A stretch of DNA of 49,291 nucleotides from a virus (lineage: Duplodnaviria > Heunggongvirae > Uroviricota > Caudoviricetes > Demerecviridae), in the IMG/VR virus record IMGVR_UViG_2757320985_000001, one strand, 5' to 3'. The translations under genes were made by a program, and so were the position numbers. The notes below the pieces were generated by a model, which was not told the DNA's origin, did not search any database, and saw nothing but the letters and a program-made list of their open reading frames with translations. Each line of letters begins with the position of its first letter. Position 1 is the first letter of the stretch. This document shows positions 4,345 to 45,139 of this stretch, piece by piece.

Positions 4345-5110
4345 GTCTTGGGGCGAAACTACTGGCGGTTCTAACGATAAAATCGACTTCCTGAAATTCA
4401 ACAACGGTGTAACTCGTGTTCGTATCGTTTCTGGTGTTCTTCCACGTTATGTCTACTGGCTGACTAACAAAGATGGTAATGCAGCTCCGTTTGAGTGTCT
4501 GCGTTTCAACCGTACTAAAGAGAGCTTCGTTCGCGGTAAAGCTGACCCGATTCACGAAATGGGCTTCTTCGAGAAAGAGCTGGACAAAGATGGTAATCGT
4601 GTTCCGCTGAAACCGAAGAAAAACTACATTGCTTTCGTTATCGACCGTTCCGATAACAAACTGAAAGTTATGGAAGTTAAAGCTACTATCCTGAAAGGCA
4701 TCCAGTCTATCATGAAGCAGCTTGAACTGGCAGATCCATTCGATATCGATATTTCTATCGAGAAGAAAGGTAAAGGCTTCGATACTGAGTACGATGTACA
4801 GCAGATCGCAGCAATGCAGTTCCAGATGAAACTGAAAGATCCTACCAGTGCTGAGTCTAAACTGCACGCCGCTGATGTTGATATCCTCGGTGAAGCTATG
4901 TGTGATGATACTGGTGAGTTCATCAAGTTCGAAAAAGTTCCTTCTCTGGAAGAAACCTACCCGGTTCCGTCCTACGAAGAGCAGAAAGAAGCTATTCTCG
5001 CCTTCATGGAAGGTCGTGAGAAGCAAGACGGCGGTGACGCTAAGTCTGGTGGTGATGCTGGTTCTCAGAAAGGCATCGACGCTGAAGCTGCTAGCGATCT
5101 GGACGACTAA
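4337..5110 (+). CDS. D11: D11 protein, probable ssDNA-binding/recombination protein
   Basis: 257 aa with an acidic flexible C-terminus (…AASDLDD) typical of phage SSBs, strong codon bias, T5 position upstream of D12. Confidence 0.85.
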   Translation: MAKSWGETTGGSNDKIDFLKFNNGVTRVRIVSGVLPRYVYWLTNKDGNAAPFECLRFNRTKESFVRGKADPIHEMGFFEKELDKDGNRVPLKPKKNYIAFVIDRSDNKLKVMEVKATILKGIQSIMKQLELADPFDIDISIEKKGKGFDTEYDVQQIAAMQFQMKLKDPTSAESKLHAADVDILGEAMCDDTGEFIKFEKVPSLEETYPVPSYEEQKEAILAFMEGREKQDGGDAKSGGDAGSQKGIDAEAASDLDD

Positions 5111-5116
5111 TAAACC

Positions 5117-5144
5117 AAGGGGAGCTACGGCTCCCTTTCTTTTT
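5117..5144 (+). terminator. Rho-independent terminator after D11
   Basis: GGGAGC-TACG-GCTCCC stem followed by TTTCTTTTT. Confidence 0.8.
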
Positions 5145-5149
5145 AACTT

Positions 5150-6127
5150 ATGAGAATACTATTTAGTGCTGATCATCATATCAAATTAGGACAAGATAAA
5201 GTTCCAAAGGAATGGCAGAAGCGTCGCTTCCTGATGCTAGGAGAACGGTTAAATGACATATTCCATAATCATAACTGTGATCTGCATATTGCTGGTGGTG
5301 ATATTCTTGATGTTGCCGACCCATCGTCGGAAGAAATAGAACTTCTTGAACAGTTCATGTCAAGACTTGACCATTCAGGCAAGATCTTCACTGGGAACCA
5401 TGAAATGTTAACTAAAACTATTTCATGTCTGTATCATTATGCAGGAGTTATTAATAAAGTAACAAACGGAAATTGGGAAGTCATTACTAAACCATATCGT
5501 TCTCCTGAATTTGATATTATCCCTTATGATGAAATCCACAAACCAAAGTGGAAACCATCTGAGTCAAAACTATGTTTCACGCATGTTCGTGGTGAAATCC
5601 CTCCACATGTAAAACCAGAGATTGATCTAACGAGGTATAACTGTTATGACACTGTAATTGCTGGCGATTTACATTCTTATACTAATAGTCAAACTGTTGG
5701 TTCTACTAGACTTCTTTATCCAGGATCTCCATTAACTACATCGTTCCATAGAGAACGAACAAAAGGTACAAATGGTTGTTTTATCATTGATACCGACACA
5801 TTAAAAGTAGAATGGATTGAACTTGGTGACTTACCACAACTGATTCGTAAAACAATCGGAGTTGGTGAGGAAATGGAGCCTAGTGACTATGACCGTGTAA
5901 TTTATGAAGTCACTGGTGACGTCGTTCAGTTAAAGTCTATTAAAGATTCTGATCTCTTAGATAAAAAGATTAACCATCGAGTTACTAAAGATGCTAAGTT
6001 AAATCTTGTTGATCTTGATATGTTAGGCGAGCTTGAGCTTTACTTCCGTGAAGTTGAAAAGCTGTCTCAAGACGACATTGATAGAATCTTGGCTAGAGCT
6101 GCTAAATATGTCAAAGATTATAATTAA
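5150..6127 (+). CDS. D12: Recombination nuclease, SbcD/Mre11-like subunit D12
   Basis: Metallophosphoesterase motifs ADHH, GGD, GNHE, HVRG and GDLH. Confidence 0.92.
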   Translation: MRILFSADHHIKLGQDKVPKEWQKRRFLMLGERLNDIFHNHNCDLHIAGGDILDVADPSSEEIELLEQFMSRLDHSGKIFTGNHEMLTKTISCLYHYAGVINKVTNGNWEVITKPYRSPEFDIIPYDEIHKPKWKPSESKLCFTHVRGEIPPHVKPEIDLTRYNCYDTVIAGDLHSYTNSQTVGSTRLLYPGSPLTTSFHRERTKGTNGCFIIDTDTLKVEWIELGDLPQLIRKTIGVGEEMEPSDYDRVIYEVTGDVVQLKSIKDSDLLDKKINHRVTKDAKLNLVDLDMLGELELYFREVEKLSQDDIDRILARAAKYVKDYN

Positions 6128-41094: not shown

Positions 41095-42759
41095 TTATGC
41101 AAAGAATTTACCGTTTTTGAAATCAATCAAAGTACGTTGCCCGTTTGCATAGGTAATTAAATGCGTTTGCGTCCAGCTTGACGCGCCCACGTTGTAGCCC
41201 ATATCAAGGGAACCAGCAACGCCAGCGGTATAAACGCCGCCGTAAATGCTAGCCGTGTGAGTGTGACCAGTGTTAAGGCGTCCCAACTTTTTAAACTGCT
41301 TAGGATTGCCACGACTGCCGTTAATGCCATTGTGACCATGTACGCCGCACTCAATGCCCGCGATTTTAAACGACTGGTCAGTAGTCAGGAATATGGCGTT
41401 AAATTCGCAACCTGCGACATTACGCAAGGCGTAATCTAACACGTTAAACGTTTCGTCACGTTCACCGATTGCGGCGTAAATCGCAGCATTCAGGCGGTGA
41501 TATAGTTCGGCGTTTGCGGGATCATCCTTAATGTTAGCGTTACGATCATCAAGCCAGCGTGAAAGCGCTAAATCATGGTTTGATTCCACAATGATTGTTT
41601 GAGAGAAATCACGCTCCATAGACTCTAAAACGCGTCCAGTGTCGATAAGATCATCTAAAACCTTGTCACGTCCGGCGGCGTACTGTTTAGCAAGGAATAC
41701 ACCACTTGCGCGGTTATGATGATTGCGGGATGTAAAATCATGCACATCATGAATAAACTGATATTTCGGCTTGAGAATATCAAGCAATGAATTTTCACTA
41801 GCCCATGAAGCAACGGCACATTCATCATCTAATTTTTCGGCGTGAATATCGCCATATTGCAAGCCTAAAACGTGTCCAGACGTTTCAAAACATCCGGTAG
41901 CGGTAGCGCAAATATTCAAATCATAAAACATTCCGCTTTCGTCCATTGTTTCAAGCTGGCGCACAAAAAATTCGCCGTCGTCGTCAAACTCCACCAGCAA
42001 AGCGCCGAAATTATGCAGCGCCTCGGCTTTTTGACCTGCTTTCTGCTGAATGTAGTTTTTAAGCGTAGCCGTTCCGGTTGAATACATACGGCGCACAATT
42101 TCACCTTTTAACGCTGGTACACTTTCAGCGGTGATTTTAGCGTGACCGATTGCCAGCCCTTCAATATTTAAAGTCGTGGCGGTTTCTGCAAAACCTGTAA
42201 GCGGATAATCTGCCGTTGGTAATGCGTTAATTTCAGCCATGAAAGCAAAGCGGCGATTATTTAGGAAAACGTTTTTCTCGCAGATATATTTATTAAATGC
42301 GGGATCATATTTAATCCCTTCGTTACCTTCCCCATTCTGGAAGCCGTTTTTATTGTAAATGAATTTACTAACCAGCAATTCAGCGCCGATATAATCAGCG
42401 AACTTTTCCAGACTTGCTAAAAAGTTTTTATGCGGGAAAGTGTTATTTTGAATCGACGTTAGAATAAAACGGCGACCGGATTTAACTTCCCATTGTTCAA
42501 CGGTACTAGAAACAATTCCCGCCGCTTCGGGGCGATCATCATTTTTAATCGCCTTTTCAGCTTTTGCCGCTTTCGGTTTCGCTGGCTTATTTGCTTCCAG
42601 CCAGTCACAAATTGCGGTCGAATGTTTCGGCGTATCATAAACAGCTTTTGAAATATCGTCGCAAACTTCCAATTTAGTAGCGCGTAAACGCTTACCATAG
42701 AAATTAAAATCAGCGGCCATTTTCAAAATTTGAGCTTGTTTTTCTGCGGAAATATTCAT
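41095..42759 (-). CDS. A1: A1 protein (host DNA degradation / second-step transfer; metallophosphoesterase-fold nuclease)
   Basis: 554 aa; GDIH, DVHD, SNHD, HGH and GHTH metal-binding motifs; T5 position and size. Confidence 0.92.
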   Translation of the reverse strand: MNISAEKQAQILKMAADFNFYGKRLRATKLEVCDDISKAVYDTPKHSTAICDWLEANKPAKPKAAKAEKAIKNDDRPEAAGIVSSTVEQWEVKSGRRFILTSIQNNTFPHKNFLASLEKFADYIGAELLVSKFIYNKNGFQNGEGNEGIKYDPAFNKYICEKNVFLNNRRFAFMAEINALPTADYPLTGFAETATTLNIEGLAIGHAKITAESVPALKGEIVRRMYSTGTATLKNYIQQKAGQKAEALHNFGALLVEFDDDGEFFVRQLETMDESGMFYDLNICATATGCFETSGHVLGLQYGDIHAEKLDDECAVASWASENSLLDILKPKYQFIHDVHDFTSRNHHNRASGVFLAKQYAAGRDKVLDDLIDTGRVLESMERDFSQTIIVESNHDLALSRWLDDRNANIKDDPANAELYHRLNAAIYAAIGERDETFNVLDYALRNVAGCEFNAIFLTTDQSFKIAGIECGVHGHNGINGSRGNPKQFKKLGRLNTGHTHTASIYGGVYTAGVAGSLDMGYNVGASSWTQTHLITYANGQRTLIDFKNGKFFA

Positions 42760-43152: not shown

Positions 43153-43569
43153 TTATTCACCTGCGGCCTGTTTTACTTCCTCCGCTACGCCTAACAATTG
43201 CGCTACGGCTTCCAGCGTTTCCAGTTTTGCACTTTCCAAACTTGCCAGATCGTCGGCATCTTTAATAACGCCAGCATCAATGGCATGTTTAGCCATAACG
43301 CGCACATAGTGAGCTTTACGGACACTAGACCCGCCGCCAACTTTACGCGGTTTATCGCTTTTCTGGTAGGCTTTTGCACTGGTCAATTTAGAACGTACAG
43401 AAACAGGACTTGCAGCGCCAACGGCGGCGGCAATTTCTTTTAAGCCGTCAGTGTTAGCAAATTCAATTCCGCTTTTAGCGACCATTTCAGAATACATAGA
43501 AACAGCCTTTTCGGTGTTTTCTTCGTTCCAAGAGAATTTTGCGGTTTTTTCGGTTTTAACGTTAGACAT
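43153..43569 (-). CDS. A2: A2 protein (DNA-binding, second-step transfer; 138 aa, start corrected to ATG 43569)
   Basis: MSNVKTEKTAKFSWNEENT…SVRSKLT sequence of T5 A2 type; GGAG RBS. Confidence 0.9.
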   Translation of the reverse strand: MSNVKTEKTAKFSWNEENTEKAVSMYSEMVAKSGIEFANTDGLKEIAAAVGAASPVSVRSKLTSAKAYQKSDKPRKVGGGSSVRKAHYVRVMAKHAIDAGVIKDADDLASLESAKLETLEAVAQLLGVAEEVKQAAGE

Positions 43570-43793
43570 AATAAATACTCCATTCAATTATTAATTAAGG
43601 GATTATGATTAACTAATGTTAATCGTTATATTGCCCATATTTCAGGGCAATATAAAAGTAACACTAATCATATAAGTTTAAATTGTGTGCCATAACATTG
43701 TTCACACTACATGGTTAATATATCGAAAATCTAACATGAGGCGCTAGCCTTATTTATTTACGCCGATTAAAGGCGCGGGTTAATAATAAGCTA

Positions 43794-44045
43794 TTAGGCG
43801 ATAGCTTGCCATTTATCATCTTTCTGAATGACCTTTACAACGTCGCCAGATTTAACACGGACGGTATAAATCGGCTTACCGTTGTTGCTACGTTCCGTTT
43901 CCGCGTAAACCGCTTCGATTTTATCGAAAGGATCAAGCGCCGCACCTTTAATACGTTCGGCTTTTCCGGTTAATTCATCCGTTTTAGTAACAAAAGGAAT
44001 GAATACAGATTGACCTACTTTCGGCGCGGTAATAACGTTTTGCAT
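43794..44045 (-). CDS. Pre-early hypothetical protein (83 aa)
   Basis: GGAG RBS; T5 synteny. One of the small genes here may be the T5 cell-division inhibitor, but I cannot assign which from sequence alone. Confidence 0.8.
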   Translation of the reverse strand: MQNVITAPKVGQSVFIPFVTKTDELTGKAERIKGAALDPFDKIEAVYAETERSNNGKPIYTVRVKSGDVVKVIQKDDKWQAIA

Positions 44046-44155
44046 TTTTAATACTCCGGTTTATTGGGGGATTATTCCACAATAGCGCCTCGATACTTTG
44101 AAACGCTATTAGATTATAATCCGCTAGGAGTTAGCCTAAACATTACCGTTATCCA

Positions 44156-44170
44156 AATTTTTAAAGAGCA
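44156..44170 (-). promoter_or_regulatory. boxA-like antitermination element (second copy)
   Basis: Minus strand TGCTCTTTAAAAATT(TGGAT); matches the rrn boxA consensus TGCTCTTTAA(C/A)A. Confidence 0.65.
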
Positions 44171-44210
44171 GTTACTACGGGGAACATCTTAAAACCTATC
44201 GGCTAGCGTG

Positions 44211-44429
44211 TCAAGCGTTTTTTAAACTTTTTTCTATTTGATGTGAGTTATATAAATCAATCATTATATTACGCCACACCATTTCCAGACCTTGTTGCTT
44301 GCCTTTCTTGTATTGCTTGAATCTGTATTTTACAGATCGTTGCGCTACTGTCAACAAATTTTTTGTTCTGCTATCTAATGCGCTAGCAGGTTTTGCACTA
44401 ATCACTAAAGCGTTTTTTGATTTGATCAT
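44211..44429 (-). CDS. Pre-early basic hypothetical protein (72 aa), first gene of the leftward operon
   Basis: AAGGA RBS; Lys/Arg-rich; bracketed by a 24-bp inverted repeat. Confidence 0.75.
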   Translation of the reverse strand: MIKSKNALVISAKPASALDSRTKNLLTVAQRSVKYRFKQYKKGKQQGLEMVWRNIMIDLYNSHQIEKSLKNA

Positions 44430-44487
44430 TATCGTCAGTTCCTTATAATATCTAAGTTTACCGCCGATAGGCTTTAAGATGTTCCCT

Positions 44488-44524
44488 AATTTTTAAAGAG
44501 CATGGCGGTTTAAACTTCCCCGCC
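44488..44524 (-). promoter_or_regulatory. Hairpin (boxB-like) plus boxA-like element in the leader
   Basis: Minus strand GGCGG-GGAAGTTTAAA-CCGCC-A-TGCTCTTTAAAAATT. Confidence 0.65.
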
Positions 44525-44569
44525 GTGTAATCTTGCGTTTCGTTTCCGTCCCGCCGTCCTACGAGATAA

Positions 44570-44612
44570 ATAATAGCAAATTGAGAGAAAGAGACAAGCG
44601 TATTTTTGTAAA
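44570..44612 (-). promoter_or_regulatory. Leftward pre-early promoter
   Basis: Minus strand TTTACAAAAATACGC-TTGTCT(44597)-16-TATTAT(44575) with TGn extended -10. Confidence 0.7.
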
Positions 44613-45139
44613 GAAACGTAAAGACAAACGCCACCGCACCACGTCCAGCGGCGCACTAAATTTAATGAAACGGGCGCGCGAATAACACCAAAACAACCAT
44701 TTTAGCAAGTAATTTTTTCATTTATATCTGCTCTAGGGTACTTGACAAAATCTAAAATCCTCGTGGTGAGGTTTTCTCGGTGTACCCCTTATGATTGCCT
44801 ATCTTTTCCTTTGAGGCGCTTAGAATGCGTTACAGAGCGTTTTAGACCCTGTTAATAACTTATACAAAAAGCAAAAATGAAATTTAATGAGTTATCCACT
44901 TGATTTTTCAAAAAAGTATTTTCTGCTGTTATTTTTCATTGACAAATAAGTTTAGACGTGCATTGATTGGTTAGCATACTAACAATCGCTAGGATAATAA
45001 TCACGCTGGTGGATTGTAACAGCCGAAACAGTTAGCAGACTATTAATACTCTAAAAACCTATTAGCCAACTAACTATTTCATATTATATAATATACTTAT
45101 AAATTAAAGAGAAATAATAACTATAAGAAACTATCGGCT

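Follow-up and report, generated by a model that had tools for sequence, protein, structure and literature searches.

The inverted repeat described here lies in the pre-early region of a T5-like phage (Demerecviridae, Markadamsvirinae; IMG/VR record IMGVR_UViG_2757320985_000001), of which the analysed stretch of 49,291 nucleotides is referred to as the window. The region is 93–97% identical to T5-like phages, the closest match being Escherichia phage IrmaTschudi (97%), and belongs to the left terminal repeat, i.e. the first-step-transfer DNA with the pre-early genes, which occupy the minus strand of the window and are read leftward. Two arms, GGGAACATCTTAAAACCTATCGGC (44180-44203, plus strand) and GCCGATAGGCTTTAAGATGTTCCC (44463-44486), bracket the homologue of the T5 gene hdi. 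A preliminary description of this DNA had reported them as 24 nt long with one difference, and an inverted-repeat search returned exactly these coordinates, with 259 nt between the arms. Read in the RNA sense, the non-coding 5′ arm is GGGAACAUCUUAAAGCCUAUCGGC (44463-44486, minus strand) and the 3′ arm is GCCGAUAGGUUUUAAGAUGUUCCC (44180-44203, minus strand); inverted-repeat search, folding and alignment agree on both.

The sole difference between the arms, A at 44194 and C at 44472 on the plus strand, amounts to a G:U pair in minus-strand RNA and to an A:C mismatch in the plus strand. Folding of both strands agreed with this asymmetry, to which the preliminary description had drawn attention. 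In the minus-strand, coding RNA (446 nt folded, z −5.5) all 24 positions paired contiguously in the minimum free energy (MFE) structure and the centroid structure alike, while the helix in the plus-strand fold was broken at the A:C position. With a gap-free stem score (Watson-Crick pair 1, G:U 0.5, mismatch −2) the arm pair reached 23.5, compared with 14 to 15.5 for the best stem in each of ten shuffles of the 10.3-kb first-step-transfer region. It was the only long-range stem of this region clearly above the shuffle range on either strand. Further copies of the arms with up to three mismatches were not found in the window, and none were expected by chance.

The open reading frame (ORF) for a 72-amino-acid protein (44211-44429, minus strand), previously described as looped out by the stem, indeed lies wholly within the loop. 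Its product matches Pfam DUF7416 (PF24188, E 1e-38) and shares 68% identity with T5.008. Relative to T5, indels in the window are in frame, and most differences in the conserved core, read by eye, are synonymous; the ORF is therefore a real gene. T5.008 is Hdi, a host division inhibitor acting on FtsZ, which is toxic alone and confers a competitive advantage on T5 (PMC10714956; preprint 10.64898/2026.04.02.716235). A tblastn search found hdi in 504 phage records. The arms are placed close to the gene: the 5′ arm ends about 20 nt upstream of the hdi Shine-Dalgarno sequence, and the 3′ arm begins 7 nt past the stop codon.

Both arms are accompanied by a boxA-like element, TGCTCTTTAAAAATT. The first copy, boxA1 (44488-44502, minus strand), is separated from the 5′ arm by one base on its 5′ side, and the second, boxA2 (44156-44170, minus strand), follows nine bases past the 3′ arm; these spacings had been given before and were confirmed. 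The two copies are exact, at a chance expectation of 0.43 matches with up to two mismatches. boxA1 agrees at 14 of 15 positions with TGCTCTTTAACAATT, the boxA of ribosomal RNA (rrn) operons, and the elements of the phages Kamaji, Stitch and H8 agree with it at all of them. A GC hairpin (GGCGG-loop-CCGCC; 44504-44524, minus strand), recognized from sequence and fold, adjoins boxA1 in the position that boxB takes in rrn leaders. Its stem is also present in T5 and Klebsiella phages with different loops. An annotated T5 gene of 35 amino acids, T5.009 (NC_005859, 4915-5022), overlaps the 5′ arm, boxA1 and the hairpin. Its counterpart in the window is a 58-amino-acid ORF (44458-44634, minus strand) with a GTG start inside the arm, and neither is probably a gene. 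In a 2026 preprint on a minimal T5 genome, '009' was retained only because the locus was uncloneable, and strong promoters were blamed for the failed cloning and deletion of the hdi/009 locus (10.64898/2026.04.02.716235).

Three promoter-like sites precede or overlap the element, all on the minus strand. The most upstream one, predicted by a consensus scan (TTGTCT-16-TATTAT with a TG; 44570-44597), is directly followed by a leader, TTATCTCGTAGGACGGC (44553-44569), that is kept in T5, Stitch, Klebsiella and DU_PP_V phages. It is a likely source of transcripts with both arms. The T5 annotation holds a leftward promoter farther upstream. Because of this annotated promoter and the conserved promoter-like leader before boxA1, both arms should be co-transcribed. 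A second site (TTGACA-16-TAAAAT; 44327-44354) lies in hdi and is the equivalent of T5 P_H22 according to consensus scan, T5 RefSeq annotation and alignment. Transcripts starting from it would carry the 3′ arm only. The third site (TTGACA-17-TAAGAT; 44186-44214) has 10 of 12 consensus positions and corresponds by alignment to T5 P_D/E20. This TTGACA-17-TAAGAT site is probably identical with the published P_D/E20 sequence, although a literature search did not turn up the printed sequence. The assignment combines this probable identity with the consensus scan and with the overlap between P_D/E20 and hdi given in the 2026 preprint. In T5, P_D/E20 partially overlaps hdi and P_H22 lies within it (10.64898/2026.04.02.716235; NC_005859). 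The feature 'promoter P-D/E 20' of NC_005859 (4338-4664) is located some 20–30 bp downstream of the hexamers assigned here (about 4690-4718), and it apparently denotes a cloned fragment and not the core of the promoter.

Spacer, −10 hexamer (TAAGAT) and start region of the minus-strand P_D/E20-type promoter together make up the 3′ arm. The preliminary description overlooked that this arm is the core of a strong promoter. As the start of P_D/E20-type transcripts lies at the end of the arm, these transcripts lack it, and only read-through RNA from upstream has both arms. boxA2 is close to where the P_D/E20-type transcripts begin. The same overlap of 3′ arm and promoter core is found in Klebsiella phages, in Kamaji and in both modules of DU_PP_V described below. 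In the window the hdi stop codon TGA is part of the −35 hexamer TTGACA (44211-44214, minus strand), an arrangement kept in T5, Klebsiella phages and Kamaji and, as TTGATA, in DU_PP_V. The end of hdi and the promoter are fused across a long evolutionary distance.

Pairing of the arms in T5-like phages

For comparison, the locus was taken from about 35 distinct genomes. Covariation among relatives had been proposed as a check on the helix, and it was evident at several levels. Among 17 distinct Markadamsvirinae, every one of the 408 cells of the 24 pairs holds a standard pair in the coding-strand RNA (408/408). Two pairs have changed on both sides, one from A-U to U-A and one from C-G to U-A with U-G intermediates, and four have changed to G:U only. 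None of the shuffles attained a pairing or covariation score as high as that observed, and sliding the partner strand by one to three columns lowered pairing to 29–44%. In one phage an extra base is present in both arms, constituting a compensated one-base insertion.

Beyond the Markadamsvirinae the sequence of the helix differs and its position is kept, so that it can be followed through four genera including Klebsiella Sugarlandvirus, Serratia phage Kamaji and Pectobacterium phage DU_PP_V. Across relatives its length ranges from 26 to 40 bp. The Sugarlandvirus helix comprises 30 nt, or 14 and 15 bp with a bulged A, and that of Kamaji 28 nt. In DU_PP_V the module is present twice in a row, with helices of 26 and 29 nt; both times a boxA-like motif precedes the 5′ arm, and the 3′ arm contains a promoter core. 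The order of boxA, arm, gene and arm recurs in this phage at 136-460, enclosing gp008, and at 652-1125, followed by a variant boxA, TGTTCTTTAACAATCTGG (locus L025). The DU_PP_V record carries an odd 'attachment site attL' misc_feature just before the ORF of the second module (locus 709-722). Both T5 RNA (z −8.4) and Klebsiella phage RNA contain the helix in their MFE and centroid folds. RNAalifold on 12 sequences from different genera returned no structure; the MAFFT alignment was out of register for arms from different genera, and some sequence ends were uneven. Support across genera rests on stem detection genome by genome.

The boxA motif is a constant neighbour of the 5′ arm. The sense sequence YGCTCTTTAA stands just 5′ of it in every Enterobacterales-infecting T5-like relative examined. 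After the 3′ arm, boxA was found in Stitch, H8, SP_Thor and Kamaji (as GCTCTTTAACAATTT), and also in Klebsiella phages and DU_PP_V; GCTCTTTAACAATTT is the rrn boxA consensus. T5 and its close kin have no boxA2. In the T5 fold the helix is extended by 7 bp, in which CGCUCUU of boxA1 pairs with a downstream GAGAGCG. In Seafire and smaug the repeat measures 39–40 nt and covers boxA1 completely, so that boxA1 pairs with an antisense copy of itself. Two Vibrio phages, 70E34-1a (L064:3590-3760) and pVp-1 (L063:3309), have a leader-like TATTATTTATCCCGTAG and a boxA, CGCTCTTTAA(C/A)AATTTGG, about 140–170 nt before A2, and are without hdi. Long repeats in the Vibrio T5-like phages belong to the DnaA/LexA-box injection-stop repeats and lie upstream of the leader-like element. 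The fold of the window also showed a possible second pairing, which would join the conserved leader to a site downstream of boxA2; Klebsiella phages do not share it, and it was dropped.

In contrast to the constant position of the helix, its cargo varies. That the stem brackets a single small gene, as first described, is correct for the window and does not extend to relatives, whose loops carry hdi, another small ORF or both. hdi alone is enclosed in the window and in T5; a second small ORF together with hdi in Klebsiella phages, Kamaji, DU_PP_V, Seafire and chee24; and the second ORF alone in one DT57C-like genome and in Gostya9, both of which lack hdi. This second ORF of about 55 amino acids lies upstream of hdi within the loop in many relatives (L023:709-876, L026:709-876, L025:719-876, L037 and L065, the last being Gostya9). 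The arms sit just outside the translated region and bracket whichever cargo is present. Since the cargo varies among relatives, the helix belongs to the site and not to one gene.

Selection on RNA and on DNA

We assign a probability of roughly 0.55 to the reading that the arms form a selected long-range RNA duplex beside an rrn-type boxA, which is probably a substrate of RNase III. Its first part can be separated from selection on DNA by the kind of changes the arms have undergone. Of the transitions possible in each pair, one leads to G:U and one to A:C in the coding strand, and the two should be equally frequent if evolution is neutral and strand-symmetric or if selection acts on duplex DNA. 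Across 17 haplotypes from four genera, 18 distinct G:U states were counted against 4 A:C and 2 A:A (binomial p ~0.004). The wobble asymmetry that had been taken as a sign of RNA-level selection in the window thus holds across relatives. Mutational strand bias is not supported as the cause of the G:U excess, because outside the stem columns the same alignment shows balanced background transitions: 29 wobble-making (C>T, A>G) versus 26 mismatch-making (G>A, T>C), albeit in a small sample. Maintenance of the complementarity by selection on the coding-strand RNA is supported by these comparisons. At the −10 hexamer the demands of promoter and helix are in conflict: this hexamer, on the promoter strand, is where the two A:A mismatches and the bulged A of other Klebsiella phages are located, in Klebsiella at its key second-position A.

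A rather improbable alternative would place the function in the DNA. The repeat, corresponding to IRA/IRA′ of T5, could act as duplex or single-stranded DNA in binding RNA polymerase or a phage or host protein, in injection or as a recombination boundary, or the likeness of the arms could result from gene conversion. IRA/IRA′ have indeed been listed by Davison as conserved DNA repeats of unknown function (10.1101/866236), the 3′ arm is a genuine RNA polymerase site, and in Seafire and smaug the repeat is a near-perfect palindromic arm pair of 39–40 bp. Two Epseptimavirus-type phages (L054:3554-3913, L033:884-1392) have a very different hdi allele, QQGLPMVWDNMM, nearer to the Klebsiella type, between arms identical to those of the window (44148-44505), which suggests cassette exchange through recombination at conserved flanks. 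However, duplex DNA offers no explanation for the 18:4 ratio of G:U to A:C, and a cruciform would need an implausible loop of 243–430 bp. If the arms recombined, hdi would be inverted, which was never seen among the relatives. A divergent promoter in the 5′ arm was rejected; no −35 hexamer precedes the inverted copy of the −10 hexamer, and the copy is not kept as such (TTTTAT in Klebsiella, with loss of the key A).

Inverted repeats flanking a small gene, with a direct repeat outside them, also recall a DNA switch that can be inverted, or else a small mobile cassette bounded by terminal inverted repeats, with the boxA copies as target-site duplication. The preliminary description had ranked DNA inversion as the less likely alternative, and it found no support. 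In each of the 30 distinct relatives with hdi, gene and leader point the same way (30/30), and neither a second orientation nor a recombinase or transposase was found nearby, the neighbours being A2, T5.007 and small ORFs. The direct repeat does not abut the arms as a target-site duplication of a miniature inverted-repeat transposable element (MITE) or insertion sequence would: it is offset by one base on one side and nine on the other, T5-type phages lack it, and Seafire and smaug have it inverted. Several copies or a variable location, as expected of such elements, were not seen either, as the window holds no further arm copies and the element occupies the same place across four genera. A switch or mobile cassette is therefore very improbable.

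Several points weigh against the RNA reading. The DT57C/Gostya9-like lineage has two A:C mismatches per helix, so that the pairing constraint is not absolute. Vibrio T5-like phages (pVp-1, 70E34-1a) keep boxA, and no equivalent helix was found in them; the surroundings of the T5.007 homologues in Vibrio phages and in one Stephanstirmvirinae phage are different and were uninformative. Coding-strand C-to-T changes, which transcription-linked deamination favours, make up most single-step changes in the arms, and the background control is small. Its role as a promoter constrains the 3′ arm in any case, and covariation could be imitated by gene conversion between the repeats; RNA pairing is set apart from these readings by the G:U bias only. 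Moreover, G·T is the most tolerated mismatch in single-stranded DNA, so that a hairpin of the coding-strand DNA is a formal alternative to the RNA helix. Finally, a T5 hdi deletion is viable (PMC10714956).

A possible processing site in the pre-early transcript

According to the RNA reading, the arms would pair in the leftward pre-early transcript into a 24-bp helix that loops out a small cassette, here hdi. E. coli RNase III cuts uninterrupted duplexes of about two helical turns on both strands. Because the helix is a long, uninterrupted duplex, we infer from these properties that it may serve as a processing site for the host RNase III. Cleavage would yield three products: the boxA leader; an hdi message held together at its ends by the inner, GC-rich half of the helix (CCUAUCGGC/GCCGAUAGG); and a downstream T5.007-A2-A1-dmp message with a new 5′ end only a few bases away from where transcripts of the internal promoter begin. 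The hdi message would thereby gain a decay rate of its own, uncoupled from the rest of the operon, and might be either stabilised or destroyed. Circularisation of the hdi RNA, which had also been considered, is supported by nothing in the data.

The helix could likewise be real and selected but serve a purpose other than excision. The boxA-bound Nus complex and the leader could be kept tethered while the cargo loops out, as in the chaperone model for rrn operons; boxA1 could be sequestered once the 3′ flank has been made; the ends of the message could be clamped against exonucleases or RNase E without cleavage; or Rho loading could be blocked in the untranslated gap. Such roles draw on the same covariation and G:U bias as RNase III processing. 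They are in line with the constant position of boxA next to the 5′ arm, with the 7-bp extension in T5 that engages boxA1 (CGCUCUU with GAGAGCG) and with the 39–40-bp duplex of Seafire and smaug that covers it. Given the established properties of the enzyme, however, RNase III should cut an unprotected, uninterrupted duplex of 24–40 bp in E. coli or Salmonella, and we regard a function without excision as unlikely.

RNase III processing would find a place in a broader and only tentative picture, based on analogy, in which the first operon of T5-like phages is run as a copy of an rRNA operon. boxA would recruit a host antitermination and RNA chaperone complex of the Nus/SuhB type that retains the 5′ strand at the polymerase up to the emergence of the 3′ strand, and RNase III would release the clamped hdi message. 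Since this 3′ strand copies the strong internal promoter into RNA, read-through RNA after processing would share almost the same 5′ end with the primary transcripts of that promoter. The combination of boxA and long-range helix might then represent a general cassette design.

Downstream of the element the window encodes homologues of T5.007 (83 amino acids; 43794-44045), A2 (43153-43587) and A1 (41095-42759), all on the minus strand and assigned from the ORF list and comparison with T5. The leader of the T5.007 homologue contains an imperfect local hairpin (44069-44122) whose arms, 44069-44087 and 44104-44122, are 74% complementary. An RNA-seq dataset exists for the related phage Bas33 (PRJEB101990; PMC13250531).

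Relation to known systems

The closest parallel is the leader/16S stalk of E. coli rrn operons, whose leader and spacer carry a boxB hairpin, boxA and boxC and whose 16S and 23S leader-trailer helices are RNase III targets. Both systems have a hairpin, boxA, the 5′ strand, cargo, the 3′ strand and boxA in succession, and in both a helix of more than 20 bp is formed by sequences hundreds of bases apart. The phage helix has the long-range duplex of at least about 20 bp that is typical of rrn leader-trailer helices (24 contiguous pairs, 259-nt loop), a GCUCUUUAACAA-like motif conserved beside the 5′ arm (in Seafire and smaug within the inverted repeat itself) and pairing kept at the RNA level (408/408 cells, two double-sided pairs, 18 G:U against 4 A:C). 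The likeness to an rRNA stalk put forward in the preliminary description therefore stands as far as the order of elements is concerned, but boxA2 is not universal, being missing in T5-type phages. Further differences are found in the enclosed RNA. Instead of a stable structural RNA, the phage loop holds translated mRNA of 0.25–0.43 kb (hdi and/or the small ORF), in the window encoding the protein Hdi, and no Rfam family reached its gathering score anywhere in the window. A boxC was not identified in the phage, and the phage 3′ strand doubles as a promoter core. A link between the helix and Nus factors is an analogy that is partly supported, under which boxA would be bound by NusB-NusE. Since its cargo is mRNA and cleavage is only inferred, the element appears to work like an rrn stalk and is not a member of that family.

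The RNase III sites R0.3, R0.5, R1, R1.1 and R1.3 of T7 and T3 are similar in that double-stranded RNA elements lie between the cistrons of an early polycistronic message of a virulent coliphage, synthesized by host polymerase with a boxA near its start. These sites, in contrast, are local hairpins with internal loops that are cut mostly on one strand, whereas the duplex described here is uninterrupted and formed by arms 259 nt apart that enclose a cistron. P_D/E20 and P_H22 of T5, known from the Bujard laboratory (NC_005859), correspond to promoters found here, the core of the P_D/E20-type promoter being the 3′ arm.

The repeat itself is most likely the same element as IRA/IRA′ of T5. Aligned with the window, T5 has its arms at about 4680-4707 and 4951-4978 within Repeat Region 1, between T5.007 and the divergent promoter region. 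Davison places IRA/IRA′, as an untranslated DNA repeat of unknown function, in Repeat Region 1 (T5 4682-5310) of the left terminal repeat, a region kept across T5-like phages (10.1101/866236). In the text examined, the words 'promoter' and 'RNase' do not occur, nor does a reading at the RNA level or a covariation analysis. In the GenBank record of smaug, one arm is marked as a repeat_region. Literature searches returned no paper joining phage T5, boxA and antitermination, nothing relevant on phage T5 and RNase III, and no account of the RNA reading, of the covariation or of a P_D/E20 core complementary to an upstream leader segment; the Davison review of 2015 was not covered by them.

The pre-early region of T5 is a classic yet still poorly understood system, in which conserved repeats have been discussed only as DNA signals. 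Strong T5 promoters are standard tools, and the T5 promoter is used in commercial expression vectors. If the RNA reading is true, IRA/IRA′ would acquire a concrete function, a virulent phage may borrow the transcription and processing machinery of host rRNA for its mRNAs, and a toxic division inhibitor would be given its own expression kinetics within one operon. While the repeat as a DNA feature and the classic promoters were already known, our comparison suggests as new a reading of IRA/IRA′ at the RNA level, covariation of its arms and complementarity between the core of a T5 promoter and the leader upstream of it.

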